NCBI GenBank assembly: GCA_964618365.1
Contig: CAZUAA010000001.1
Coordinates: 1-48,795 of the forward strand
DNA length: 48,795 nucleotides
Origin: an uncultured Candidatus Saccharibacteria bacterium
GTDB taxonomy: Bacteria; Patescibacteriota; Minisyncoccia; Phycocordibacterales; UBA9973
Direction: 5' to 3'
A program made the translations under genes and the position numbers. How positions within the stretch are numbered: position 1 is the stretch's first letter; each line of letters begins with the position of its first letter. Of this stretch, positions 30,841 to 48,677 are shown piece by piece. Below the pieces are notes generated by a model, which worked only from the letters and a program-made list of their open reading frames with translations, was not told the origin of the DNA and did not search any database.

Positions 30841-32553
30841 ATGAAAAATTTGATTGAACAAAAAATAAAAGAAGCATTAAAAAATCTTGGAATAAATGAA
30901 GATGTTTCTTTTTCTGTGGAGCATCCGGATGATTTAAAGAATGGGGACTATTCGACAAATGTGGCGATGGTATGCGCCAAACAGTTAAAATCAAACCCCG
31001 GGGGTTTGGCGGAAAAAATTAAGATAGAAATAGAGAAAGATTTACCTAAAGAAATTGAAAAGGTAGAAGTTGCTGGCCCCGGGTTTATTAATTTCTATTT
31101 ATCTCGAGAATTTTTTACTGAAAAAGTAAAAGAAATTTTAGAAAGAGGGGAAAATTGGGGGAAGAATGTTTTACTAGAAGGGAAAAAGATTATGGTGGAG
31201 TATACTGACCCAAATCCATTCAAGCCATTTCATATAGGCCACCTCATGACAAACGCAATAGGGGAATCTCTTTCTAGAATAGTAGAATTTTCTGGTGCCG
31301 AAACTATTCGTGCAAATTACCAAGGAGATGTGGGTCCTCATGTCGCAAAAGCAATATATGGACTTTTGCAATTTGGAATGCCAGAAGAGAATAAGACCGT
31401 GTCTGAAAAAGCACAATATATTGGTGAATGTTATTCAAAAGGAAGTAATTTTTATGATACAGATGAAAACATAAAAAAAGAAATTGATGAAATAAATAAA
31501 AAAATTTATGATAAATCTGATGATAAAATAAATGAAATATATGAATGGGGAAGAAAGGTAACGCTAGATGCATTTGAAGAAATTTATAAATTACTAGGGA
31601 CAAAATTTAGTGATGGGTGTTATTTTTTTGAAAGTAAGATGGCGCCGATAGGAGAAAAAATAGTTAGAGAAAATATTGGGGAAGTTTTCAAAGAATCAGA
31701 CGGTGCTATTGTTTTTCATGGTGAAGATTATGACAAGAAACTACATACTAGAGTATTTATTAATTCTCAACAATTACCGACTTATGAGACAAAAGAAATT
31801 GGTCTAACTGTTACAAAATTTGAAAAAGAAAATCCTGATTTATCTATTGTGATAACTGCTACTGAACAGGCAGAATATATGAAAGTGGTAGAGAAAGCTA
31901 TTTCACTTATTTATCCTGATTACGAGAAAAGAATGCTACATATAACTCATGGGATGATGCGTTTTGCTGATGGTAAAATGTCTTCAAGAAAAGGGAATGT
32001 AATAACAGGAGAATCCTTACTCAATGATTCGATGAATATTGTGTTAGAAAAAATGAAAGAAAGAGATATGCAGGATGAAGAAAAAAATCATATTTCAAGG
32101 ATAGTGGGAGTTTCGGCTTTGAAATACTCGATACTTAGATCGTCTCTTGGTTCTGATATTGTTTATGATCAGGAAAAATCAATTTCCTTTGATGGGGACT
32201 CTGGTCCATATTTACAATATACGGCTGTACGGGCGAATTCGATTTTAGAAAAATCAAAGAGTTTTGATTTAGAAGATAAAAAAGATATTCCTGAAAATAT
32301 TACTGATTTAGAAAAATTACTTTATCAATTTCCTGAGATTGTAGAGTACTCTTATGGAGAGCTTGCTCCACACCATATCGCAATTTATCTTACAAAACTT
32401 GCAAGTGAATTTAATACTTTTTATGGTAATACTCAGATTCTTATTGAGGAAAATAAATACATGGTCTATCATTTGAATCTCATAAAATCATTTTATAAAA
32501 CTATGGGAAATGGCCTATGGCTTTTAGGCATGGAAATACCAGAGAGGATGTAA
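30841..32553 (+). CDS. argS: Arginine--tRNA ligase
   Basis: Contains YTDPNPFKPFHIGH (HIGH), MSSRKG (KMSK-like) and the C-terminal anticodon-binding DALR region. Confidence 0.9.
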   Translation: MKNLIEQKIKEALKNLGINEDVSFSVEHPDDLKNGDYSTNVAMVCAKQLKSNPGGLAEKIKIEIEKDLPKEIEKVEVAGPGFINFYLSREFFTEKVKEILERGENWGKNVLLEGKKIMVEYTDPNPFKPFHIGHLMTNAIGESLSRIVEFSGAETIRANYQGDVGPHVAKAIYGLLQFGMPEENKTVSEKAQYIGECYSKGSNFYDTDENIKKEIDEINKKIYDKSDDKINEIYEWGRKVTLDAFEEIYKLLGTKFSDGCYFFESKMAPIGEKIVRENIGEVFKESDGAIVFHGEDYDKKLHTRVFINSQQLPTYETKEIGLTVTKFEKENPDLSIVITATEQAEYMKVVEKAISLIYPDYEKRMLHITHGMMRFADGKMSSRKGNVITGESLLNDSMNIVLEKMKERDMQDEEKNHISRIVGVSALKYSILRSSLGSDIVYDQEKSISFDGDSGPYLQYTAVRANSILEKSKSFDLEDKKDIPENITDLEKLLYQFPEIVEYSYGELAPHHIAIYLTKLASEFNTFYGNTQILIEENKYMVYHLNLIKSFYKTMGNGLWLLGMEIPERM

Positions 32554-32592
32554 AAGGGTAATTAAGAATTAATAATTAGGAATTAATAATTT

Positions 32593-32844
32593 ATGGACTT
32601 TATAGAAGAAAGATTGAGTAAAATAGAAGAAAGAAATAGGAAGGTAGAGCTCGATAAAGCTTGGGAAACCAGTTTTATTAGGATTTTATCTGTAAGTATT
32701 ATCACTTACGTTGCGGCATTTTTTGCTTTGTATAGTATCGGTGCAAATAAACCCTACTTCAATGCATTTATTCCTGTATTGGGATTTATTCTTTCGACAC
32801 AATCAATCCCAATTATAAAAAAGTATTGGATTAAGAATAAATAA
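32593..32844 (+). CDS. Small two-TM membrane protein, first ORF upstream of the paralog array
   Basis: 83-aa ORF with a charged N-terminus and two hydrophobic helices. It ends 14 nt before the array. Confidence 0.5.
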   Translation: MDFIEERLSKIEERNRKVELDKAWETSFIRILSVSIITYVAAFFALYSIGANKPYFNAFIPVLGFILSTQSIPIIKKYWIKNK

Positions 32845-32858
32845 AATGTTTTAATTTT

Positions 32859-34607
32859 ATGGAATCTAAAACACCACAATTTGATGCATTGCTTGATAAA
32901 ATCTTAGAAGAGCTTGTCCCACATAAGCGTACTTGCAAATGGCAAGGAGAGCATAAATATTGTGAAGGGGAATTTGAAATAACAAAAGAAGATATTGAGT
33001 TTTTAAAATTACTTCGAGCTCCTGCACCAAATTATTGTCCGACGTGCAGAAGGATAAGAAGGTTTCCACATCTCACTATTTCTCAATTATTTAAAGTTAA
33101 ATGTAATGCTCCAAACCATACAGAATCCATCATTTCTGTTTTTCCAGAAGAATGTCCAGTTCCTATATATGACTATAAGTATTTTATTGGTGATGAATTT
33201 GATCCATTTTCTTTTGGTAGAGTATATGATAAGAGTTTAAGTCCACTGGGTCAACTTTTGGATTTTAGAAAAAAATTTCCTATGCCATCTTTTCTCAATC
33301 GAAACTCATCGGATATAAATAGTGATTATTCTAATGGCGGACGGGATGTTAAAAATGGTTACTATACTGTTGGTTGTTATCATGTTGAAGATGTTTGGTA
33401 TACCATTCATGCAAATAAGAGTAGAAATATTATGGATTCAAATGCAGTTGGTGAATCAGATTTTATTTATGGATGTGTCTCTTCAGATCATTTATACAAA
33501 TCTTCTTTTATATATTTTTCTAGTAATTGTATTAATTCCAGTTTTCTTTTTGATTGTAAAAATTGCCAAGATTGTTTTGGTTGTGTAAATCTTCGAAATT
33601 CTAAATATTGTGTTTATAATGAGCAGTTGACTAAAGAAGATTATGAAAGTTTTATGGGATCGATAACTCCCTTTTCGAGAGATATACTTAAAGAATGTGA
33701 AGAAAAATTTTGGCAATTAGTGAAGAGTCTTCCTCTTAATGGTCCAAGAATAGTTTCTTCAAATAACACAAATGGTGTTAAGATAATAAATTCTAATAAT
33801 TTATTTGATGTTACAGATTCTATTAGTTCTGAGAATGCACGTCATTCTGATGGGATTCAAACTCATAGAGACTCTATGGACATTCTCTATTCCGGAGGTA
33901 ATTCAAGTCTACTTTATATGAATACAAATATTGGCTCACAGTCTAGTAGAGTTAAATTTTCTATATCTTCTAAGTTTTGTTTAGATTGTGAATTTGTTTT
34001 TAATTCTAAAAATCTCACAAATTGTTTTATGTGTTTTGGACTTCAGAATAAATCATATTGTATTTTAAATAAACAGTACGAAGAATCTGAATATTATAAG
34101 ATTGTTGATGAGATAAAATCTCTTATGCTAAAGAGGGGGGAGTATAGTGATGGTCCTGGATTTGAATTTTCTGCTCAAGCTTATAATTTTTCTATTGGGC
34201 AGATTTTGTATCCACTTACCGATGAAGAGATAGTAAAATTTGGTGGCTATATAGCCAAAGAACCAGAAACAAATGTTGGAAATATGGAAGTATTAGGTAA
34301 AGATCAAATTCCTCAGACAATTAATGAAGTAAATGATGATATTTTAGATAAAGCTATTCGTTGTGAAGTGACTGGCAGGCCGTTTAGAATAATTGCTTCA
34401 GAGTTGGCTTTCTTAAGAAGAATTGGATTACCACTTCCAATTATTCATCCTTCATTGCGTATGTCTGGTCGCTGGAAATTCTCTCCTGTTGGTAAAAAAT
34501 ATAAAGCAGTATGTAAAAAATGCCAAAAAGATATGGAAACTTTATTTGATCCTAATGAAAAATATTTGATGTATTGTGAGAAATGTTATCAACAAGAAGT
34601 GATATAA
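32859..34607 (+). CDS. Cys-rich zinc-ribbon/Cys-ladder paralog 1 (most divergent)
   Basis: It shares with paralogs 2-5 the CPxCRRIRR knuckle, two copies of the motif C(F/I)GC(V)NL..K.YC..N.QY..E(E/D)Y, and the C-terminal YCEKCYQQEV. Several Cys pairs are replaced. Confidence 0.85.
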   Translation: MESKTPQFDALLDKILEELVPHKRTCKWQGEHKYCEGEFEITKEDIEFLKLLRAPAPNYCPTCRRIRRFPHLTISQLFKVKCNAPNHTESIISVFPEECPVPIYDYKYFIGDEFDPFSFGRVYDKSLSPLGQLLDFRKKFPMPSFLNRNSSDINSDYSNGGRDVKNGYYTVGCYHVEDVWYTIHANKSRNIMDSNAVGESDFIYGCVSSDHLYKSSFIYFSSNCINSSFLFDCKNCQDCFGCVNLRNSKYCVYNEQLTKEDYESFMGSITPFSRDILKECEEKFWQLVKSLPLNGPRIVSSNNTNGVKIINSNNLFDVTDSISSENARHSDGIQTHRDSMDILYSGGNSSLLYMNTNIGSQSSRVKFSISSKFCLDCEFVFNSKNLTNCFMCFGLQNKSYCILNKQYEESEYYKIVDEIKSLMLKRGEYSDGPGFEFSAQAYNFSIGQILYPLTDEEIVKFGGYIAKEPETNVGNMEVLGKDQIPQTINEVNDDILDKAIRCEVTGRPFRIIASELAFLRRIGLPLPIIHPSLRMSGRWKFSPVGKKYKAVCKKCQKDMETLFDPNEKYLMYCEKCYQQEVI

Positions 34608-34614
34608 TAACATT

Positions 34615-36291
34615 ATGGAATACAAACCAGAAAATAAAGCGTGTCAAAACTGCAAGAGAGACTTTACTATCGAGCCGGAGGATTTTAATTTTTATGATAA
34701 GATGAATGTTTGTGCTCCGAGTGATTGCCCATCTTGTAGGGCTCAATTGAGATTAAGTTTTCGTAACGAGAGAACTTTTTATAAAAGGCCTTGTGATAAA
34801 TGCGGACAAAACGTTATTTCTATGTACTCACCCAATAAGCCTTTTACTGTTTATTGTTATGATTGTTGGTATTCGGATGATTGGGGTGGGGAGGATTACG
34901 GTATGGAGTATGATCAATCTAGGTCATTTTTAGATCAATATGAAGAGTTATGGAAGAAAGTTCCTAAGGTTGCACTTATATATGTAAATAGTCCAGGGAG
35001 CGAATATACGAACATTTCAGCTGATAATAAAAAATGTTATATGATTGTGGAATCTTCTAATAATGAAAATTCTATTAATTCATACTGGATACAAGAGTGT
35101 CGTGATGTAGTAGATACATCTTTTGCTTCAAAATGTGAACTCACTTATGAGAGTGACGATTGTTACAATTCATATAAGATTTTATATAGTAAGGGCTGTC
35201 ATGATTGCTCTACAAGCTACTTCCTAACAGATTGTAGAGGGTGCTCGGATTGTATTGGATGCATAAATTTAGTAAATAAAACAAATTATATTTTCAATGA
35301 GCCGTATAGTAAAGAAGAATATGAAAAAATAAAAAAGGAGTTACAATTAGATACTTTAGATGGAGTAGAATTATTCAGAGATAAATATCAAGATTTTATT
35401 TTAAATAAACCTAGGAAATTTGGAGAAATTGTAAATGTTTTGAATTCGACTGGAAATTATATAAAGAATGCAAAAAATTGTGTTTCTTGTTTCCATTGTT
35501 ATGAAGCAGAGAATAATAAATACGGGGTCCATATTTGGCGAAATGCAAAGGATACTATGGATTGTGATACTGCCGGAAGAAATGTTTCACTTATTTATAA
35601 TTCAATAAATGCAGGAATTGATAATTCAAATTTTGTCTCTGGTTCTGTATGTTGGACTTGCTCGTTTGTAAATTATTCCACATATTGTTTTAATTCAAAT
35701 TATATTTTTGGATGTGTTGGTTTAAGAAAGAAAAATTATCATATACTTAATCAACCATATTCAAAAGAAGAATATGAAATCATTAGAGAAAAGATTATTA
35801 AAGAATTGAAAGATAATAATTTTTATGGTAATTTCTTTCCTAAAAATCTTTCTTGTTTTGGTTATAATGAGACTCCCGCATATGAGCAATTTCCACTTTC
35901 TAAAGAAGAAGCAATAAGGCAAGGTTTTAAATGGGAAGACACAGAAAGAGGGACATATGGGAAAGAGACAATTAAAAAAGAAGATATGCCACAGAATATA
36001 TCAGAGGTAAATTTTGATGTAAAAAATGAAATTTTTGTTTGTCACAATTGTGATAAAAATTTTAGAGTAATAGAAGATGAATTTCTGTTTTATAAAAAAT
36101 TAAATATTCCATTACCAAAACTTTGTCCAGAATGTAGGCATAATAGAAGAATACAGTCTCGTGGTCCAAACAAACTCTGGCACAGAAAGTGTATGAAAGA
36201 AGGATGTACAAATGAATTTCAAACAAGTTATGCTCCTGATAGACCAGAAATAGTGTATTGTGAAAAATGTTATCAAAATGAGGTATACTAA
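34615..36291 (+). CDS. Cys-rich zinc-ribbon/Cys-ladder paralog 2
   Basis: 36 Cys in 558 aa by my count. N-terminal CQNCKRDFTIEPEDFNFYDK...CPSCR, a second ribbon CDKC...YCYDCW, a duplicated core motif, and C-terminal CHNC...CPECRHNRR...YAPDRPEIVYCEKCYQNEVY. Confidence 0.9.
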   Translation: MEYKPENKACQNCKRDFTIEPEDFNFYDKMNVCAPSDCPSCRAQLRLSFRNERTFYKRPCDKCGQNVISMYSPNKPFTVYCYDCWYSDDWGGEDYGMEYDQSRSFLDQYEELWKKVPKVALIYVNSPGSEYTNISADNKKCYMIVESSNNENSINSYWIQECRDVVDTSFASKCELTYESDDCYNSYKILYSKGCHDCSTSYFLTDCRGCSDCIGCINLVNKTNYIFNEPYSKEEYEKIKKELQLDTLDGVELFRDKYQDFILNKPRKFGEIVNVLNSTGNYIKNAKNCVSCFHCYEAENNKYGVHIWRNAKDTMDCDTAGRNVSLIYNSINAGIDNSNFVSGSVCWTCSFVNYSTYCFNSNYIFGCVGLRKKNYHILNQPYSKEEYEIIREKIIKELKDNNFYGNFFPKNLSCFGYNETPAYEQFPLSKEEAIRQGFKWEDTERGTYGKETIKKEDMPQNISEVNFDVKNEIFVCHNCDKNFRVIEDEFLFYKKLNIPLPKLCPECRHNRRIQSRGPNKLWHRKCMKEGCTNEFQTSYAPDRPEIVYCEKCYQNEVY

Positions 36292-36296
36292 GATAT

Positions 36297-38066
36297 ATGG
36301 GATACCAATCAGAAACAAAACAATGCCAAAACTGCAAGAAAGACTTTACTATCGAGCCGGAGGACTTTAATTTTTATGAGAAAATCAAAGTCCCTGCACC
36401 GACTTGGTGTTCGGAATGTAGATTCCAAAGAAGGTGTACATTTAGAAATGAAAGAAAACTTTTTAGAAATATTGATGCAATATCAAAGAAACCAGTTTTG
36501 TCTTTATATCCCATAGAAGCTGGATTTCCAATTTATGAAGATAATTATTGGTGGAGTGATAATTGGGATCCTTGTGATTACGGAGTTTCTTTTGATCGGT
36601 CAAAACCATTTCTTTTGCAATTATATGAATTGAGCAAAAGAGTTCCTTTTATGCGCTCTGATGCCGTGAGAATGGTGAGAAGTGAATACTCTGCAAATGC
36701 AGCTGATCTTAAAGATTGTTATCTTATATTTAATTCTTCTGGTACAGAAAATTCTGCCTACGGAAACGCTGTAGATTATTGCAAAAATGTATTTGATAAT
36801 TCTCACATACAATCATCCGAAAAATGTTATGAATCTTTTTGGTTAAATAAATGTTACGACACCCATTTTTCTTCTTTATGTGAGGATTGTGTTTCTCTTT
36901 GGTTCTGTAAAAACTGTCAAGGATGTATGAACTGTTTCGGGTGTGTAAATCTACGCAATAAATCATATTGTGTTTTTAATGAGCAGTATAGCAAAGAAGA
37001 GTATCTGGAAAAATTAAAATCATTTGATTTTAATAAAAATAGTAATTTAGATAATTTTAAAAAAGAAATAAAAAATTTTTGGTTAAATTTTCCTAATAAA
37101 TATTCACAAGGAATTAGAAATAGTGCTTGCAGTGGGGAATATATTTCTAACTCCAAAAATGTAAAAAATAGTTATCTTATAAGAGAAGGTCAAGACTTGA
37201 AATATGTTCAGTATGGACTAGTCCCTAGCCTAAGAGATTGTATGGATTTATCAGTTAGTGGTAATAATAGTGAGCTTATATATGAAAGTGTCACTTCTGG
37301 CTGGAATTCATCTAATATGAAATTCTGTATGGAATGTTGGGATGGGGGTTCTGATTTTGAGTATAGTATTTTTTGTGGCAAAAAAGCAAATCATGTATTT
37401 GGTGGGGTGGGAATAAAAAGTGGAGAATATGTTATTTTAAATAAACAATATTCTAAAGAAGAATTTTATAAATTGAAAGAAGAAATTATACAGCATATGA
37501 ATGATATGCCCTATATTGATAAGGTTGGTAGGGTGTATAAATATGGAGAATTTTTTCCACCAGAATTTTCACCATTTGCTTATAATGATACTGTCACTAA
37601 GGAACATTTTCCATTGAGTAAAGAAGAGATTTTAGAATATGGTGCTAATTGGTATGAAGTTCCTAAGTCAGAATATGATATAACCATAAATACAAAAGAT
37701 TTACCGGATGATATAAATGATATCCAAGATAATATTTTAGACGAGGTCATTTTATGTGTAGATTGTAGTCGTGCTTATAAAATCATACAAACTGAACTTC
37801 AATTTTTGAGACAAAATAATATCGCATTACCGAGATCTTGCATTAATTGCAGACATGATAAAAGAATTTCTCAAAGAAATAGAAATAAACTTTATAAAAG
37901 GACTTGTGATTGTAATGGAGAATATTCAAATAATGGTAAATATAAAAATGAGGTAATTCATGATCATAAAAATAATTCATGTACAAACGAATTTGAAACA
38001 AGTTACGCCCCCGATAGACCAGAAATAGTGTATTGTGAAAAATGTTATCAAAATGAGGTATACTAA
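36297..38066 (+). CDS. Cys-rich zinc-ribbon/Cys-ladder paralog 3 (partly degenerate ligands)
   Basis: Same architecture as the other paralogs. The second N-terminal ribbon and the second core motif have lost their cysteines (ANHVFGGVGIKSGEYVILNKQYSKEEF). Confidence 0.9.
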   Translation: MGYQSETKQCQNCKKDFTIEPEDFNFYEKIKVPAPTWCSECRFQRRCTFRNERKLFRNIDAISKKPVLSLYPIEAGFPIYEDNYWWSDNWDPCDYGVSFDRSKPFLLQLYELSKRVPFMRSDAVRMVRSEYSANAADLKDCYLIFNSSGTENSAYGNAVDYCKNVFDNSHIQSSEKCYESFWLNKCYDTHFSSLCEDCVSLWFCKNCQGCMNCFGCVNLRNKSYCVFNEQYSKEEYLEKLKSFDFNKNSNLDNFKKEIKNFWLNFPNKYSQGIRNSACSGEYISNSKNVKNSYLIREGQDLKYVQYGLVPSLRDCMDLSVSGNNSELIYESVTSGWNSSNMKFCMECWDGGSDFEYSIFCGKKANHVFGGVGIKSGEYVILNKQYSKEEFYKLKEEIIQHMNDMPYIDKVGRVYKYGEFFPPEFSPFAYNDTVTKEHFPLSKEEILEYGANWYEVPKSEYDITINTKDLPDDINDIQDNILDEVILCVDCSRAYKIIQTELQFLRQNNIALPRSCINCRHDKRISQRNRNKLYKRTCDCNGEYSNNGKYKNEVIHDHKNNSCTNEFETSYAPDRPEIVYCEKCYQNEVY

Positions 38067-38071
38067 GATAT

Positions 38072-39745
38072 ATGGGATACCAATCAGAAACAAAACAATG
38101 CCAAAACTGCAAGAAAGATTTCGTTATAGAATCCGAGGATTTTAATTTTTATGAGAAAATAAAAGTCCCAGCACCAACATTTTGTCCGGAGTGTCGACTA
38201 CAAAGAAGATTATCTTATAGAAATGATTATATTTTTTATAATAGAAGATGTGATTTATGTGATAGAAATATAATTTCTATATATTCACCTGATAACCCTC
38301 AGATTATTTATTGTAATAAATGCTGGTGGAGTGATAAATGGGACCCAAAAAGTTATGCTCAAGATTTTGATTTTTCAAGGCCATTTTTTGAACAATTTCA
38401 AGAATTTCGTGTTAGAATCCCAGCTCTAGCATTGTTTAATGATAACAATATTGGAAGTGAGAATTGTGAGTACACTCAAGATTTAGCTTTTTCAAAAAAT
38501 TGTTATATGTGTATGGTGATGTGGAAAATTCAAGGGTGTATGTATTCTAGTTACGGGGCTGATACTAAAGATACTGTAGATTCAATGGGGATTTTTGGGA
38601 CAGGAGAAGGATTGTATGAAGTTATGTATAGTGAAAAATGTTATGGATGTAGATATGTATATAAATCTACATCATTAATTAATTGCTCTTACTGTTACAA
38701 TTGTAATGATTGCGAAGATTGCTTTATGTGTGTAAATTTGAGGGGTAAAAAATATTTTTTTAAAAATAAACAATATTCAAAAGAAGAATATAAGAAAATA
38801 TTAAGTGATTATAACCTTGATTCTTGGAGTGGAAACAATAAGGCAGAAAAAGAATTTAATGAATTTTTGTTGTCTCAGCCTTTAAAATATGCAATTTTGA
38901 AAAATTGTGTGAGTTGCACAGGGGAAAATATTACCAATAGTAAAAATTCAAAATACAATTTTCACTTACGCCGCTCAGAAAATTCAAAATTTTTAGAAAA
39001 TGGAGATACTCAAAAAGATAGTTATGATTTATGCGTTGGAGGAGAGCTCTCAGAATGTTATGAAGGATTAACACCTGATCATTCAAATAAATCACTTTTT
39101 TCTATTTATACATGGAAGTGCATGAATATTGAATATTCAGAATCATGTCAAAGTTCAAATAATTGTTTTGGTTGTGTCGCTTTAAAACATGGGAGATATT
39201 CAATTTTTAATAAAGAATATTCAAAAGAAGAATATGAATTATTAAAAGAAAAAATAATTAATCACATGAAAGATAATAATGAGTATGGTGAATTTTTCCC
39301 AATGAAGGATTCTCCTTTTGCTTACAATGAGTCAATGGCGATGTTCTCATTTCCACTTTCTAAAGAAGATATCCTTCTTAAAAAATTAAAATGGCAAAAT
39401 AATATCCAAGAGACTAGAGGAAAGACCACCTTATTTGATATTCCAGATAAAATTGAAAATGTATCAGATGTTATTGTTGATGAAATTTTAGAGTGTACTA
39501 AATGTCAAAGGAATTACAAGATAACACTAGACGAGCTTTCTTTTTATCGAAAATGGGGAATACCCATACCGAGATTATGTTTCTTTTGCAGACTTAGAAA
39601 TCGTTTTGAAAAAAGAGGTCCTTCTAAACTCTGGCATAGAAAGTGTATGAAAGAAGGATGTAATAATGAATTTGAAACAAGTTACGCCCCTGATAGATCA
39701 GAGATAGTTTATTGTGAAAAATGTTACCAAAATGAGGTATACTAA
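38072..39745 (+). CDS. Cys-rich zinc-ribbon/Cys-ladder paralog 4
   Basis: Same architecture. The first 16 codons are identical at the DNA level to paralog 3 (the shared 106-nt junction ends inside codon 16). Confidence 0.9.
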   Translation: MGYQSETKQCQNCKKDFVIESEDFNFYEKIKVPAPTFCPECRLQRRLSYRNDYIFYNRRCDLCDRNIISIYSPDNPQIIYCNKCWWSDKWDPKSYAQDFDFSRPFFEQFQEFRVRIPALALFNDNNIGSENCEYTQDLAFSKNCYMCMVMWKIQGCMYSSYGADTKDTVDSMGIFGTGEGLYEVMYSEKCYGCRYVYKSTSLINCSYCYNCNDCEDCFMCVNLRGKKYFFKNKQYSKEEYKKILSDYNLDSWSGNNKAEKEFNEFLLSQPLKYAILKNCVSCTGENITNSKNSKYNFHLRRSENSKFLENGDTQKDSYDLCVGGELSECYEGLTPDHSNKSLFSIYTWKCMNIEYSESCQSSNNCFGCVALKHGRYSIFNKEYSKEEYELLKEKIINHMKDNNEYGEFFPMKDSPFAYNESMAMFSFPLSKEDILLKKLKWQNNIQETRGKTTLFDIPDKIENVSDVIVDEILECTKCQRNYKITLDELSFYRKWGIPIPRLCFFCRLRNRFEKRGPSKLWHRKCMKEGCNNEFETSYAPDRSEIVYCEKCYQNEVY

Positions 39746-39750
39746 TATAT

Positions 39751-41460
39751 ATGGAACACCAATCAGAAGCAAAACAATGTCAAAACTGTAAGAAAGACTT
39801 TACTATCGAGCATGAGGATTTTAATTTTTATGAAAAGATTAAAGTTCTACCGCCAACATTTTGTCCACATTGTAGACTTATAAGGAGAATTACTTTTGGA
39901 AACTATTATAATTTTTACAAAAGAGATTGTGATGCTTGTGGTAAAAATGTTATTTGTATTTATTCAAAAGAAGGAGGGTCAAAAATGTATTGTAATAATT
40001 GTTGGTGGGCGGATAATTGGGATGGAACGGAGTATGGGGTAGATTATGATGAAAATAAATATTTTTTTGAACAATTAATTTCATTAAGAAAAGGTACTCC
40101 TTTTATGGCTTTTGAAGCATTATATCCTTCACTAATAAATACACTATATACAAATCATGCTTCATATCAGAAAAATTGTTTTATGACCATAATGGCTGAT
40201 TACAATGAGAATTGTGCATATTCGACTCTTATTACAAATAGTAAAGATTCAATGGATTGTTATGGAATAAATGAATCAGAGTTGTGTTATGAATGTGTAG
40301 GTATATTTAAATCCTATAATTGTTCTTGGAGTGAAGAAATATCTAATTGTGTAGATTGTCATTTTTGCCAATCTTGTGTCGGTTGTTCCAATTGTTTAGG
40401 TTGTGTAAATTTGAAAAATAGAAGTTATTGCATCTTTAATGAGCAATATTCTAAAGAAGAATATAATAATATTTTAAAAGAATTAAATTTAGAAAACTTT
40501 AATAATTTAATGGCTTTTAATAAAAAAGTTCTAGATTTTTGGATTAAAAACCCAAAAAGATATTATCGAGGTGATAGTTTCAATACTAATGTAACTGGAG
40601 ATTATATTTATGAATCTAAAAATGCGAAAGATTCATATTTGGCAGTTGGCCTTGAAGACTGTAAGTATACACAATTTATAACCTTAAAATCATCAAAAGA
40701 TTGTTTTGATTATACTAGTTGGGGCCATGGAGCTGAGCTTATTTATGAAAGTTATATTACTGGGGAAGGTTCTTATAATATTAAATTTAGCACTGAATGT
40801 TGGCCAAACTCTAGAGATATTGAATATTCTTATTATTGTATAAATTGCAAAGATTGTTTTGGGTGCGTGAATTTAAAGAAAAAACAATATTGTATTTTAA
40901 ATAAACAATATACAAAAGAGGAATATTTTATTTTAAAAGAAAAAATTATTAATGATATGAAAAATAATCCTTGGAAAAATAAAGCAGGACATATTTATAC
41001 TTACGGTGAATTCTTACCACCAGAATTATCTGCTTTTAGTTATCAAGAAAGTATTTCAAACGAATATAATACATTAGAAAAAGAAGAAGCTATTAAAAGT
41101 GGTTTTAATTGGGTTGATATAGCATCAAAAGAATATAGTATAACTCTTGATAATAAAAATCTTCCCCTAACAATATCTGAAATAAATAAAAGTATAAAAG
41201 ATGAAGTAATTGAATGCGAGTCTTGTCATAGGGGATACAATATAAGTAATTTAGAATTTGAATTATTAAATAAATTAAAACAGCCTATTCCACATCAGTG
41301 TTCAAATTGTAGACACAAAAGAAGATTTAGTAGGACAAACAAGCCTATATTTTATGATCGTGTTTGCAATAAATGTGGTGAAAAAATAAGAACCTCATAT
41401 GCCCCTGATAGACCCGAGATAGTTTATTGTGAAAAGTGTTATCAGCAGGAAGTGTATTAA
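39751..41460 (+). CDS. Cys-rich zinc-ribbon/Cys-ladder paralog 5
   Basis: Same architecture, with both core motifs intact (CSNCLGCVNLKNRSYCIFNEQYSKEEY and CKDCFGCVNLKKKQYCILNKQYTKEEY). A strong terminator follows. Confidence 0.9.
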   Translation: MEHQSEAKQCQNCKKDFTIEHEDFNFYEKIKVLPPTFCPHCRLIRRITFGNYYNFYKRDCDACGKNVICIYSKEGGSKMYCNNCWWADNWDGTEYGVDYDENKYFFEQLISLRKGTPFMAFEALYPSLINTLYTNHASYQKNCFMTIMADYNENCAYSTLITNSKDSMDCYGINESELCYECVGIFKSYNCSWSEEISNCVDCHFCQSCVGCSNCLGCVNLKNRSYCIFNEQYSKEEYNNILKELNLENFNNLMAFNKKVLDFWIKNPKRYYRGDSFNTNVTGDYIYESKNAKDSYLAVGLEDCKYTQFITLKSSKDCFDYTSWGHGAELIYESYITGEGSYNIKFSTECWPNSRDIEYSYYCINCKDCFGCVNLKKKQYCILNKQYTKEEYFILKEKIINDMKNNPWKNKAGHIYTYGEFLPPELSAFSYQESISNEYNTLEKEEAIKSGFNWVDIASKEYSITLDNKNLPLTISEINKSIKDEVIECESCHRGYNISNLEFELLNKLKQPIPHQCSNCRHKRRFSRTNKPIFYDRVCNKCGEKIRTSYAPDRPEIVYCEKCYQQEVY

Positions 41461-41485
41461 TTAATGATTAATAAGTATGTTTTAA

Positions 41486-41522
41486 CCCAGATAGGCCTCG
41501 GAGGCCTATCTGGGTTTTTTTA
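41486..41522 (+). terminator. Rho-independent terminator ending the five-gene array
   Basis: 13-bp stem cccagataggcct / aggcctatctggg with a 3-nt loop, followed by a T8 run. Confidence 0.9.
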
Positions 41523-41530
41523 AATTAGGT

Positions 41531-41549
41531 GGGGTGGTATAATTGAGGG
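41531..41549 (+). promoter_or_regulatory. Extended -10 promoter (ggggTGgTATAAT) for the pgl-gnd-zwf operon
   Basis: Same ggggtggtataat core as at 12191 and 13168. The TATAAT box at 41538-41543 lies 6 nt before the ATG at 41550. Confidence 0.6.
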
Positions 41550-42203
41550 ATGGAAATCAAAAATAATTTAAACAAAGAGGAGATCGCAGATTATGTGGCT
41601 TCAGTTATAAATAAAAAATTAAAAGAAGGGAAAAAGGTTTTGTTTTTTGTTTGTGGAGGGTCATCATTAGAAACAGAAGTTTTGGTTTCTCAAAAACTTG
41701 AAAACTTTAATGAAGATAATTTGACCATAACACTTTCAGATGAAAGATGGGGAGAAGTGGGACACAAAGATTCAAACTGGGAAAAACTTAAAAATTTAGG
41801 TTTTAATTTTGAGAATAAAAAACTTATATCATTTTTAATTGGTAAAAGTGTAGAAGAAACAAAATCTTATTTAGAGAATGAACTACGTGATGTTATTTCA
41901 AAAGCAGATTACAAGGTGGCTTTTATGGGTATGGGAAGTGATGGGCATACAGGGGGCATACTGCCTAAAAGTCCGGCTGTTTTTGAAGATGGGCTATTAT
42001 GCTATTATGATGGAGGGGTTTTTGAGAGATTTACCACAACATTTAAAATTTTGGAAAATCTAGATGAAGCATTTCTTTATGTTTTTGGTAGTGATAAATG
42101 GGCAATGGTAGAAAATTTAAATAAAGATATAGATAAGGAAGAAATGCCCGCTCAAATTTTAAAAAAGGTCAAACAATTAACAATTTTTACAGACTATAAA
42201 TAA
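41550..42203 (+). CDS. pgl: 6-phosphogluconolactonase
   Basis: Contains VCGGSS, LSDERWG and MGMGSDGHTGGILP (SugarP isomerase/Pgl family). It lies upstream of gnd and zwf. Confidence 0.8.
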   Translation: MEIKNNLNKEEIADYVASVINKKLKEGKKVLFFVCGGSSLETEVLVSQKLENFNEDNLTITLSDERWGEVGHKDSNWEKLKNLGFNFENKKLISFLIGKSVEETKSYLENELRDVISKADYKVAFMGMGSDGHTGGILPKSPAVFEDGLLCYYDGGVFERFTTTFKILENLDEAFLYVFGSDKWAMVENLNKDIDKEEMPAQILKKVKQLTIFTDYK

Positions 42204-45200: not shown

Positions 45201-48200
45201 ATGAATGAAGAAATAAAATCACAAAGGGCACAGAATGAAGAAAAAATTTTAGAATTTTGGAAAGAAAATAATATATTCCAAAAAAGTTTGGAAAAGGATT
45301 CGCCAAAAGGGGAATATGTTTTCTATGATGGACCACCTTTTGCTACTGGGCTACCTCACTATGGTCATATTCTTGGAAGTACCGTTAAAGATGTTATTGG
45401 TAGATATAAGACCATGAGTGGTTTTAATGTTCCTCGTCGTTGGGGGTGGGATTGTCACGGTTTACCAATTGAAAATATAGTTGAAAAAGATTTAGGTATT
45501 TCAGGGAAGAAAGCGATTGAAGAACTTGGAATTGCTAAATTTACCGAACATGCTCGTAGTAAGGTTTTGACTTATGTTGGTGAATGGAAAAAGACAATCG
45601 ATCGCATGGGGCGTTGGGTAGATTTCGACAATTCATATAAAACTATGGATAACACTTTTATTGAAAGTGTTTGGTGGGCACTTGGTGAGATGAACAATAA
45701 AGGATTACTCTATGAAGGTGTTAGAGTTCTTGCTTATTGTCCACGATGCGAGACTCCAATTGCAAATTCTGAAATAGCTATGGACAATAGTTATAAAGAT
45801 ATAACTGATATTTCAGTATATGTAAAATTTAAAATTCTTAATGAGGATTATCCTAATACATATCTATTGGCTTGGACGACAACCCCTTGGACTCTTCCAG
45901 GGAATACAGCAATTGCTATTCATAAAGACATTATTTATTCAGCAGTCAGAGTCAAAGGAATTGAAGAGCTTCTTATTGTTGCGAAAGAAAGTATCTTAAA
46001 TGTTTTTAAAGATAAAGAAATTGAGATAATTCATGGTGATATTAAAGGATCTGATTTAGTCGGTCTTTCTTATGAGCCAATATTTAATTACTATAAAAAT
46101 TTAGATATACCAAATAAAGAGAATATTTGGAAAGTTTGGCATGCAGATTTTGTGACATTGGATAAAGGGACAGGAATTGCTCATGAGGCTCCAGCCTTTG
46201 GTGAGGATGATATGAATCTTGCGAAAATAAATAATATTCCATTTATTCGTCACGTTGAGCCGAATGGAGATTTTTCAAAAGAAGTAATAGATTTCCCAAA
46301 TATAAAAGTAAAACCAAAAGAAGACCATCAATCGACAGATATTCTTATTATTAAGTACCTTGCTCATACGGGTAGTCTATTTGCTAAAGAAAAAATTATT
46401 CACTCGTATCCGCATTGTTATCGTTGTGAGACTCCACTTTTGTATTATGCTCTTCCTTCTTGGTTTATAAATATTCAAAAAGTTAAGAATGACTTATTGA
46501 AAAAAGGTGAAGATATGAATTGGATTCCTAGTCACCTAAAAGATGGACGATTTAAGAATACCATGGAATCTGCTCCTGATTGGACAATTTCTAGAAATCG
46601 ATATTGGGCAAGTCCACTACCTATATGGAAAAACAAAGATGGTAAAGTTATGATGGTAAATTCTGTTGAGGATTTAAAATATAAAACCAAAAAATCTGGG
46701 AATAAATATTTTGTTATGCGACATGGTGAGACAGAGTGTAATGTTAGAGGGGAGGTTAGTTCTACTGTAAACAATGATGATAATCTAACAAGTAAAGGGG
46801 TTGAACAGGTTTTAAAATCTGCAGATGAATTAAAAAATAAAAATATTGACCACATCATAACTTCTCCTTTTGTGAGAACCCGAGAAACAGCAGAATTATT
46901 GGCCGAAAAAATTGGATATGATAAAGAAAAAATTATTTATGATGATAGGCTTCATGAAATGTCTGTACCTATGTATGAAGGAAAGAAATGGAAAGAATAT
47001 CATGATGCTTATGCTAAAACTGTAGAGAATTTTTACAAAGCACCCGAAGGTAATGAGTCGTATGAAGATGTGCGACGCAGGTCAATGAGTTTTTTGTATG
47101 AAATAGAAAAAGAATATTCTGGTAAAAATATTTTGATTGTTACTCACGGAAGCCCTGTTTGGCAAATGTTTTCGGAAGTCAATGGATTAAGTACTGAAGA
47201 ATCATTAGGAATAGTTAAAACAGAAATGAGTTTTAACTATTTAGGAAATGGTGAATTTGTAGAATTACCTTTTGTTCCATTACCACATAATGCTGAATAT
47301 AAATTTGATTTACATAGGCCTTATATAGACAATATTGTTCTTGTGGATGAAAAAGGTGATGAATATAAAAGAATTCCAGAAGTTATTGATTGCTGGTTTG
47401 AATCAGGTTCAATGCCTTTTGCTCAAGATCACTTCCCATTTGAAAATAAAGATTGGCAAAAAAATAATTTCCCTGCAGGTTTTGTGGCTGAATACATAGC
47501 TCAAACAAGGACCTGGTTTTATTATACTCATGCAATTTCCACGATTCTTTTTGGAAATGCTCCGTTTGAAAACGTTGTTACTACGGGGACTGTTTTGGCT
47601 GAAGACGGAAGTAAAATGTCAAAATCAAAGAATAATTATCCAGATCCTTGGAAGTTGTTTAATAAATATGGAGTTGATGCGCTTCGTTTTTATCTCATAT
47701 CTAGTACTTTAATGAAAGGTGAAGATGTAAATTTTTCTGAAAAATTAGTACAAGAAGTTTCAAGCAAAATCATAAATAGATTTGATAATGTTGTTTCATT
47801 TTATGAATTATATAGAAATAAAGATATAGAAGCTGAAGAATATAGAGTTTCTGGTAATATTTTAGATAAATGGATAATTACTAGATTAAATCAATTAAAG
47901 ATAGAGGTAAAAAATGGGATGGAATTATATGATTTATCTTTAGCTACAAAACCTTTTGATTTATTTATAGAAGATCTTTCTACTTGGTATTTACGTCGAT
48001 CTCGAGATGTATTAAAGGATGGGAATAGGGATTCTTTGTATACTCTTTATTTTGTGATAAAAACAACAGTCCAACTTTTTGCACCTTTTATGCCTTTTAT
48101 TGCTGAAGAGATTTGGAAAAAGATTAAATTAGATTCTGATCCTAATAGTGTTCATTTAAGTAATTTCTTTTTAGATCTTAAAATAGAAGATATAAATATT

Positions 48201-48677
48201 AGTATTATTAATGAAATGAAAGAAGTAAGAGAGATTGTGACTCTTGGACTTCAGGCAAGACAAAAAGTAGGAATACCAGTTAGACAGCCACTTGGAAGAT
48301 TATTAATTACTAATTATCAATTACCAGTTGAATATGAGGAGATAGTAAAAGATGAATTAAATGTTAAAGAAATAAAAATAATTGATGATGGAGAAAAAAA
48401 TATAAAACTAGACACTGAAATTACTCCAGAACTTAAAGAAGAGGGGAATTATCGTGAACTGGTACGTGCAATACAAGATATGAGAAAGAAAATGGGGCTT
48501 AATCCAAATGATGTGGTGAACCTAGAGATAGAAACTGGAGTAGAAGGGCAGAAAATAATAAATAGATTTGAAAAAGAATTTGAAAAGGCAGTAAGTGCTA
48601 AGGTGTCTATACAAGAAAATGGAGGAGAGCAAATAAAAATAAGTGATTTATTGTTTATTGTAAATTTGGTAAAATAG
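45201..48677 (+). CDS. ileS: Isoleucine--tRNA ligase with an inserted histidine-phosphatase (PGM-like) domain
   Basis: Contains HIGH (PHYGHILG), KMSKS, the editing-domain motif WTTTPWTLP and CWFESGSMPF. Residues ~500-700 carry RHGETECN, TSPFVRTRETA and VTHGS. Confidence 0.95.
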   Translation: MNEEIKSQRAQNEEKILEFWKENNIFQKSLEKDSPKGEYVFYDGPPFATGLPHYGHILGSTVKDVIGRYKTMSGFNVPRRWGWDCHGLPIENIVEKDLGISGKKAIEELGIAKFTEHARSKVLTYVGEWKKTIDRMGRWVDFDNSYKTMDNTFIESVWWALGEMNNKGLLYEGVRVLAYCPRCETPIANSEIAMDNSYKDITDISVYVKFKILNEDYPNTYLLAWTTTPWTLPGNTAIAIHKDIIYSAVRVKGIEELLIVAKESILNVFKDKEIEIIHGDIKGSDLVGLSYEPIFNYYKNLDIPNKENIWKVWHADFVTLDKGTGIAHEAPAFGEDDMNLAKINNIPFIRHVEPNGDFSKEVIDFPNIKVKPKEDHQSTDILIIKYLAHTGSLFAKEKIIHSYPHCYRCETPLLYYALPSWFINIQKVKNDLLKKGEDMNWIPSHLKDGRFKNTMESAPDWTISRNRYWASPLPIWKNKDGKVMMVNSVEDLKYKTKKSGNKYFVMRHGETECNVRGEVSSTVNNDDNLTSKGVEQVLKSADELKNKNIDHIITSPFVRTRETAELLAEKIGYDKEKIIYDDRLHEMSVPMYEGKKWKEYHDAYAKTVENFYKAPEGNESYEDVRRRSMSFLYEIEKEYSGKNILIVTHGSPVWQMFSEVNGLSTEESLGIVKTEMSFNYLGNGEFVELPFVPLPHNAEYKFDLHRPYIDNIVLVDEKGDEYKRIPEVIDCWFESGSMPFAQDHFPFENKDWQKNNFPAGFVAEYIAQTRTWFYYTHAISTILFGNAPFENVVTTGTVLAEDGSKMSKSKNNYPDPWKLFNKYGVDALRFYLISSTLMKGEDVNFSEKLVQEVSSKIINRFDNVVSFYELYRNKDIEAEEYRVSGNILDKWIITRLNQLKIEVKNGMELYDLSLATKPFDLFIEDLSTWYLRRSRDVLKDGNRDSLYTLYFVIKTTVQLFAPFMPFIAEEIWKKIKLDSDPNSVHLSNFFLDLKIEDINISIINEMKEVREIVTLGLQARQKVGIPVRQPLGRLLITNYQLPVEYEEIVKDELNVKEIKIIDDGEKNIKLDTEITPELKEEGNYRELVRAIQDMRKKMGLNPNDVVNLEIETGVEGQKIINRFEKEFEKAVSAKVSIQENGGEQIKISDLLFIVNLVK

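Follow-up and report, generated by a model that had tools for sequence, protein, structure and literature searches.

Exact identity across two gene junctions of a tandem paralog array in an ultra-small Patescibacteria genome as a probable footprint of recent short-tract gene conversion

We analyzed a window of 48,795 nucleotides (nt), positions 1 to 48,795 of the forward strand of contig CAZUAA010000001.1 (assembly GCA_964618365.1), from an uncultured Candidatus Saccharibacteria bacterium of the Patescibacteriota lineage UBA9973. The window carries an array of five adjacent paralogous genes, which we call p1 to p5, all on the plus strand. Two junctions of this array, the p2/p3 junction (J23) and the p3/p4 junction (J34), share a block of 106 nt that is identical base for base. 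We conclude that this identity was probably left by a recent event of interlocus gene conversion, in which a short tract passed non-reciprocally, by homologous exchange, between the two neighboring junctions. The source genome is a metagenome assembly of 705,698 base pairs (bp) in 34 contigs and is 92% complete.

An earlier sequence-only reading of the window had reported an exact repeat of 106 nt, and direct comparison confirmed that positions 36238-36343 (copy A) equal positions 38013-38118 (copy B), both on the plus strand at an offset of 1775 nt, with mismatches directly flanking both borders. The anatomy given in that reading, namely 17 tail codons, a stop, a 5-nt spacer and the head of the next gene, was exact. 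In copy A, positions 36238-36288 are the final 17 sense codons of p2, 36289-36291 are its TAA stop, 36292-36296 are the spacer GATAT, and 36297-36343 hold the p3 ATG, 14 further codons and 2 nt. Copy B has the same layout with the tail of p3 and the head of p4. The block therefore comprises 32 sense codons, the stop and the spacer, all identical between the copies, and it brackets precisely one gene, p3, in frame. As the same reading had described, the p4/p5 junction (J45, 39692-39797, plus strand) is a close but imperfect copy, being 91% identical to the block with 10 differences, and the p1/p2 junction (J12, 34570-34661, plus strand) is more distant, at 78% with about 20 differing sites. A sliding-window comparison of the paralogs on contig C1 also favored the observation: in windows of 20 codons, nt identity was 30-65% in the bodies and 70-100% over the first ~40-60 and last ~20-40 codons, with heads and tails at 80-100%.

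The repeat is genuine, with two exact copies and these borders, and is not an assembly artefact, because an independent assembly with k=31 yields it as a unitig of its own at about 2.5 times the depth of its flanks. The region is present in two wastewater metagenome runs, X1 and X2, as seen in Logan contigs. In X1, one contig corresponds exactly to 36238-36343 at a depth of 17.5, and the four contigs that flank the block have depths of 6.3-7.2 and end or begin 30 nt inside it, which is k-1. A contig end at 38042 in X2 matches the boundary, and the order p2-p3-p4 is the sole linear path that uses all unitigs. X1 is probably the genome's own sample, and hence it provides an independent assembler, not an independent sample. 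The sequence-only reading had named collapsed reads as a possible source of the identity, such that similar but unequal junctions would have been merged into a single consensus. The genome is indeed metagenome-assembled and the family visibly disturbs its assembly, with a 10-N gap in the tail motif of one copy and several copies at contig ends. The depth contrast, the four overlaps of exactly k-1, the repeated boundary and the single path nevertheless make such a merger extremely improbable, and no variants of the block at a likeness of at least 97%, and so no alternative path, were found in the Logan contigs. Read depth was even over p2, p3 and p4, the contigs being unable to span the 106-nt repeat, and no copy-number variants of the array were seen among the Logan contigs. 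Pattern scans of two public collections (metagenome_contigs and genome_contigs) did not return the exact junction.

Identity of this kind exceeds what the shared protein sequence would produce. Where two paralogs have the same residue, the codon is also the same at only ~55-65% of positions, in bodies, heads and tails alike. We drew column-specific rates of codon sharing from paralog pairs other than p2-p5 of the source genome, in which the columns of the block share a codon in ~25-99% of same-residue pairs. With these rates, a complete codon match over the block, conditional on matching residues, has a probability of ~10^-7.2 (~6e-8). A Sawyer-type permutation test was applied to polymorphic sites in the alignment of the four junctions. 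J23 and J34 had a run of 36 agreeing sites, and 0 of 20,000 shuffles gave a run as long (p<5e-5); a second significant run joined J12 and J23 (p=4e-4). Because of the codon-sharing probability and the permutation result, chance is excluded as the source of the identity.

The affinities of the junctions change abruptly around the block. In the 5' flank (36172-36237, plus strand), the p2 tail resembles the p4 tail (J23=J45), followed by a stretch just before the block in which J34=J45. Within the block J23=J34, and 10 sites differ from J45. Directly 3' of the block J23=J45=J12, and J34 (p4 as compared with p3) has 8 differences in the first 16 nt; at this breakpoint (36344-36364, plus strand) p3 moves to CTTTACTATCGAGCCGGAGGA, which is common to the p2 and p5 heads. 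Further on, J34=J45. Comparing the genome with itself returned matches of 250 nt at 88% for J23/J34, 220 nt at 90% for J23/J45 and 312 nt at 81% for J34/J45, and the ends of dispersed family copies were 76-88% identical. This patchwork has the look of a signature of repeated short conversion tracts. As in concerted evolution, there is a discrete tract with breakpoints, and the identity extends to synonymous and non-coding sites beyond protein constraint.

Gene bodies and gene ends tell different histories when orthologs are considered. The p3 orthologs in other genomes are 88, 82, 74 and 70% identical in amino acids (aa), and a separate set of p4 orthologs reaches 91, 78 and 76% aa, yet p3 and p4 share only ~41% aa identity. 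Because each is so much closer to its own orthologs, p3 and p4 are separate old subfamilies rather than recent duplicates, and recent duplication was ruled out as the cause of the block. In codon-aligned nt, the p3 body is 75-90% identical to the three orthologs compared and 40-60% identical to its array neighbors. The ends show the reverse: the first 20 codons of p3 are 63% identical in nt to the ortholog on L039 (82% aa overall) and 90% to p4, with 100% identity to p4 over the first 15 codons, and the last 20 codons are 69% identical to the L039 ortholog and 98% to p2. At the protein level, the first 25 residues are 72% identical between p3 and P0007 and 64% between p4 and P0126, and most body windows are at 84-100%. 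Ends are thus more alike within the genome than to orthologs, as concerted evolution entails, and bodies track orthology.

A relative gives a parallel case. Contig L044 carries a p3 ortholog at 84% nt identity, and there the tail of the upstream gene and the p3 tail both read APER...QQEVY, whereas in this genome the corresponding p2 and p3 tails both read APDR...QNEVY; the L044 spacer is 21 nt, compared with 5 here. The head types MEYKPE.., MQSETK.. and MNSE.RNC.. occur across both the p3 and the p4 ortholog sets, a spread that would be expected if heads are often exchanged.

We also examined tandem pairs at loci L019-L038 from eight other genomes of the genus. Homogenized ends between neighbors were found elsewhere, with 119 nt at 99.2% (G005), 121 nt at 95% in tails (G009), 116 nt at 93% (G006) and 74 nt at 94.6% across a junction (G012). 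An adjacency test was then made over all same-genome pairs of the source genome and the eight congeners. Heads (120 nt) had a median identity of 78.8% in adjacent pairs versus 69.2% in non-adjacent pairs (p=1.5e-5; p=1.6e-4 for the relatives alone). For bodies, the corresponding aa identities were 37.1% and 38.1% (p=0.72). Because adjacent heads are more alike but adjacent bodies are not, the proximity effect is specific to the head and independent of relatedness.

A mechanism that would give this picture starts from the contrast in divergence along the genes. The bodies, at 30-65% nt identity, would be too different to recombine, and selection on the protein would keep the first ~50 codons (a zinc finger) and the last ~20-40 codons (a zinc ribbon) alike. 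The similarity retained at the ends would permit strand invasion or template switching between adjacent copies, and each conversion would lift identity and so favor the next, making the process self-reinforcing. The outcome would be that ends evolve in concert within the array and bodies keep following orthology. The molecular route could be RecA-mediated conversion or RecA-independent template switching; template switching between close repeats would fit the proximity effect too. RecA was found in 17 of 18 congeners and in 28 of 31 genomes of the order. MutS domain V was missing from 30 of the 31. Since MutS is the chief obstacle to homeologous recombination, its lack in the lineage may act as a facilitator of exchange between sequences at 80-90% identity. 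The direction of conversion was tentatively from J34 onto J23, because the closest ortholog of p3 has a p2-like MEYKPE head and not MGYQSE.

Several observations weigh against this account. The present assembly, at 92% completeness, yielded no RecA, although, because the protein is present in 17 of 18 congeners, its absence is probably a gap. Tails showed no adjacency effect: over the last 18 codons, identity was 70.4% in adjacent and 68.5% in non-adjacent pairs (p=0.38; p=0.38-0.52 in relatives), and homogenization of tails is therefore sporadic and follows no general rule. No conversion event was seen directly, and the data come from one population and one assembly. Finally, insertion of a cassette, or unequal crossover, at junctions that had already been homogenized would leave the same picture.

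Cassette entry is the likeliest competitor to gene conversion. It holds that the blocks are direct repeats left when one crossover within the junction homology placed a p3 cassette between p2 and p4, either because a circle that had been excised integrated in Campbell fashion or because sister chromatids exchanged unequally, so that the block marks remodeling of the array. The repeat does flank precisely one gene in frame with a period of 1775. On L044, the p3 ortholog also lies between direct repeats of ~28 nt (468-500 and 2290-2320, GTAAGTATTGTAATACGTATTA..) and the array ends after it, and L045, a Logan contig with a p4 ortholog, starts and finishes with the same promoter-like stretch of ~28 nt (..TTGATATAATTTAA); in other strains as well, repeats seem to border the units. 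In every relative examined, the p3 and p4 orthologs are solitary or differently neighbored. In L040 and L043, neither p1 nor p2 is orthologous to the upstream neighbors of the p3 ortholog, and in run X4 a different paralog comes after a ~92% relative of p3. For identical repeats to result, however, the donor and target junctions must already have been identical over 106 nt, and entry therefore presupposes the prior homogenization that conversion supplies. In addition, the alignment that BLAST gives for L044 and the window continues for 113 nt into the upstream gene's tail with no drop from ~84% identity, so the junction upstream of p3 looks old, not recent, and the even depth of p2, p3 and p4 gives no sign of copy-number polymorphism. 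We consider cassette entry unlikely. A broader version is doubtful as well: the zinc-ribbon head and tail with the short spacer could serve as portable in-frame recombination handles by which whole bodies are swapped, inserted, duplicated or deleted. If this were true, every strain would carry an individual array of this greatly expanded protein, which is specific to Patescibacteria, and the most recent mark of cassette traffic would be the 106-nt block, which would then be no isolated conversion.

The other competitor had been raised in the sequence-only reading, which offered selection on the nucleotide sequence of the stop-restart region as a cause. The junction would then be kept identical for termination-reinitiation at taaGATATatg or, as a further candidate, for an internal promoter lying within the last codons (GTGAAA-18-TATACT). 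There is a stop-start gap of 5 nt at three junctions, a weak match to -35 and -10 elements sits at the equivalent place in J23, J34 and J45, and start-context signals occur genome-wide, so some bases near the stop may matter. Against this, the Shine-Dalgarno (SD) sequence is barely used in this genome, where only 3-4% of long open reading frames (ORFs) are preceded by GGAG or GAGG, and 119 of 456 same-strand gene pairs lie at most 10 nt apart or overlap, making the junction typical. Junctions of the family in relatives have spacers of 1-38 nt with unrelated sequences, J45 and J12 differ from the block at the sites counted above, and other paralog pairs keep the codons of the block's columns to the variable extent already given. 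Such signals would also cover ~10-35 nt, not 106 nt with all synonymous sites fixed. Selection of this kind is very unlikely to account for the block and found no support, given the rarity of SD sequences, the variable spacers and the lack of RNA structure. A few bases near the stop may be important for initiation, yet they give no account of 106 nt.

Candidate signals in the junctions were rejected individually. The promoter-like GTGAAA-18-TATACT occurs at three junctions, but its count in the region equals that in shuffled sequence (57 vs 56.5). The 106-nt sequence folds with a z-score of -0.64 relative to shuffles, and there was no Rfam match in 32000-42000. Antisense ORFs that cross the junctions at 36062-36337 and 37843-38112 on the minus strand had no Pfam match and were treated as by-products of the repeat. 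The missing SD sequence is unremarkable because the genome hardly uses one. Sequence around starts in the source genome is rich in A/T: position -1 is T in 70% of starts, and a TGnTATAAT-like composition signal lies between -15 and -7, which suggests that many messenger RNAs are leaderless or have very short leaders.

Taken together, the synonymous identity, the mosaic breakpoints, the discordance of ends and bodies and the adjacency effect of heads argue for gene conversion seeded at the junctions, the part of the sequence-only reading that stood. That reading had also proposed expansion and contraction of the array with a 1775-nt period. The block flanks one in-frame gene, therefore recombination between its copies would delete or duplicate p3 cleanly, and the p3 and p4 orthologs have other neighbors in relatives. 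Such remodeling is plausible, and with depth even across p2-p4 it is a corollary and not a finding.

The five genes of the array lie on the plus strand at 32859-34607 (p1, 582 aa, the most divergent, with an N-terminal extension), 34615-36291 (p2, 558 aa, with its last 17 codons and stop in copy A), 36297-38066 (p3, 589 aa, head in copy A and tail in copy B), 38072-39745 (p4, 557 aa, head in copy B) and 39751-41460 (p5, 569 aa, the final gene). The distance from stop to start is 5 nt at J23, J34 and J45 and 7 nt at J12, where TAACATT follows TAA and the stop sits within an extended -10-like motif, TGATATAAT. An intrinsic terminator-like hairpin with a 15-bp stem and a T run follows p5 (41484-41516, plus strand). 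It is the sole plus-strand hairpin of this type in the array, which suggests one transcription unit ending after it and is consistent with co-transcription of the array; RNA data consisted of one weak run, whose only contig (190 nt) falls within the body of p3, and were uninformative on this point. The stem, CCCAGATAGG...CCTATCTGGG, stands 3' of family genes at two loci of the source genome (41484-41516 of the window and C14:15389-15414), and an identical stem lies between two paralogs in another genome (L043, 7962-8000). The only other match in the source genome is a loose one, with 1 mismatch allowed, in a much shorter hairpin at an unrelated site (C1:69722-69739). The array is bordered by argS (30841-32553) on one side and pentose-phosphate genes on the other. 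Elsewhere in the window, at 45201-48677, an isoleucyl-tRNA synthetase has a complete His_Phos_1 (histidine-phosphatase) domain inserted at residues 504-668.

The proteins encoded by the array are Cys-rich, with lengths of 557-589 aa, and look cytoplasmic, having no signal peptide. They have an N-terminal CxxC...CxxC finger, a second finger of that kind near residue 480-520 and a C-terminal CxxC-x17-CxxC ribbon, and heads and tails are the most conserved parts of the protein. No Pfam or NCBIfam family scored above its cut-off. The best scores were 24 bits against a cut-off of 27 for zf_Tbcl (PF13451), 17.9 against 24 for zf_Tbcl_2 (PF23477) and 20.7 against 36 for TIGR04272, a resemblance only. 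An AlphaFold model of p3 was confident, with a predicted local distance difference test score (pLDDT) of 83.9 and a predicted template modeling score (pTM) of 0.85. Sequence comparison found no relative in the PDB, and a Foldseek search with the p3 model gave no PDB match (best E 6.9). The more than 7,800 homologs are all unnamed Patescibacteria proteins, from Paceibacterota, Nomura-, Lipton-, Jorgensen-, Giovannoni-, Gracili- and Curtissbacteria. A literature search on the family and on gene conversion in Patescibacteria returned nothing specific.

The source genome has ~18 family loci in 0.7 Mb, ~4% of its DNA, located in the window at 32859-41460 and on contigs C2, C3, C4, C8, C13, C14, C19, C27 and C32. 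Among the 18 other genomes of the genus searched, 11 have the family, with 4-26 matches each, and at E<=1e-20 no match came from the 12 genomes that represent other families of the order. In the copy at C4:35741-37443, the 10-N scaffold gap falls right on the conserved motif of the tail, and the copies on C13, C19, C27 and C32 are among several that end contigs; the conserved ends of the family therefore break assembly. One copy of the source genome (among C4:35741-37443 and C2:24657-26366) bears a single in-frame TAG, and copies with single in-frame stops are present in relatives as well. In other Paceibacterota (L042/L043, 6214-9770; L040, 6243-9704), a pair of paralogs lies directly upstream of methionine aminopeptidase, the L042/L043 pair downstream of a ribosomal-protein/secY/adk cluster and the L040 pair after scpA/scpB. 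The paralogs of those relatives thus stand in a housekeeping neighborhood, as they do here beside argS.

Homogenization of paralogs is well known in other bacteria. In Salmonella, non-reciprocal homologous exchange keeps tufA and tufB identical, including at synonymous sites. That exchange homogenizes the whole gene, whereas here only ~100-300 nt at the ends are involved, and differences have reached saturation in the bodies. Template switching that needs no RecA and joins close direct repeats, described by Lovett and co-workers, is strongly proximity-dependent and is known chiefly from E. coli, through deletions and expansions at identical repeats. Its dependence on proximity would fit the head-specific adjacency effect and the 1.8-kilobase spacing found here. 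The 5-nt gap between stop and start and the operon-like array with a single terminator also resemble translational coupling, but unlike coupling elements the junctions have no conserved sequence or structure beyond an ordinary A/T-rich start context, which leaves 106 nt unexplained.

The closest described case, as far as the summary in PMC3960876 goes, is that of babA/babB and homA/homB in Helicobacter pylori, in which 3' segments are alike within a strain and other segments are alike between strains. That summary ascribes the pattern to intragenomic gene conversion via conserved ends (Pride & Blaser 2002, summarized in PMC3960876). As here, one segment is alike within the genome and the rest follows orthology. 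Compared with the H. pylori outer membrane protein paralogs as summarized there, the genes of our array are directly adjacent, and their products look cytoplasmic, with zinc-ribbon ends and no signal peptide. Both ends are involved here, one tract crosses a stop, a spacer and the next start, and there is no known link to antigenic or phase variation.

We regard this case as ordinary local gene conversion in a new setting, that of an ultra-small Patescibacteria genome in which the paralogs are adjacent and the tract runs over a gene boundary. The phenomenon is familiar, and the more remarkable object is the expanded fold-orphan family itself, which occupies ~4% of the genome with no functional annotation and no match to a solved structure. 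Homogenized ends break short-read assemblies and can mislead full-length phylogenies or ortholog calls for the family. As a clear and statistically well-supported instance of segmental concerted evolution in a very small Patescibacteria genome that lacks MutS, the array indicates that homologous exchange still shapes multigene families in reduced genomes.

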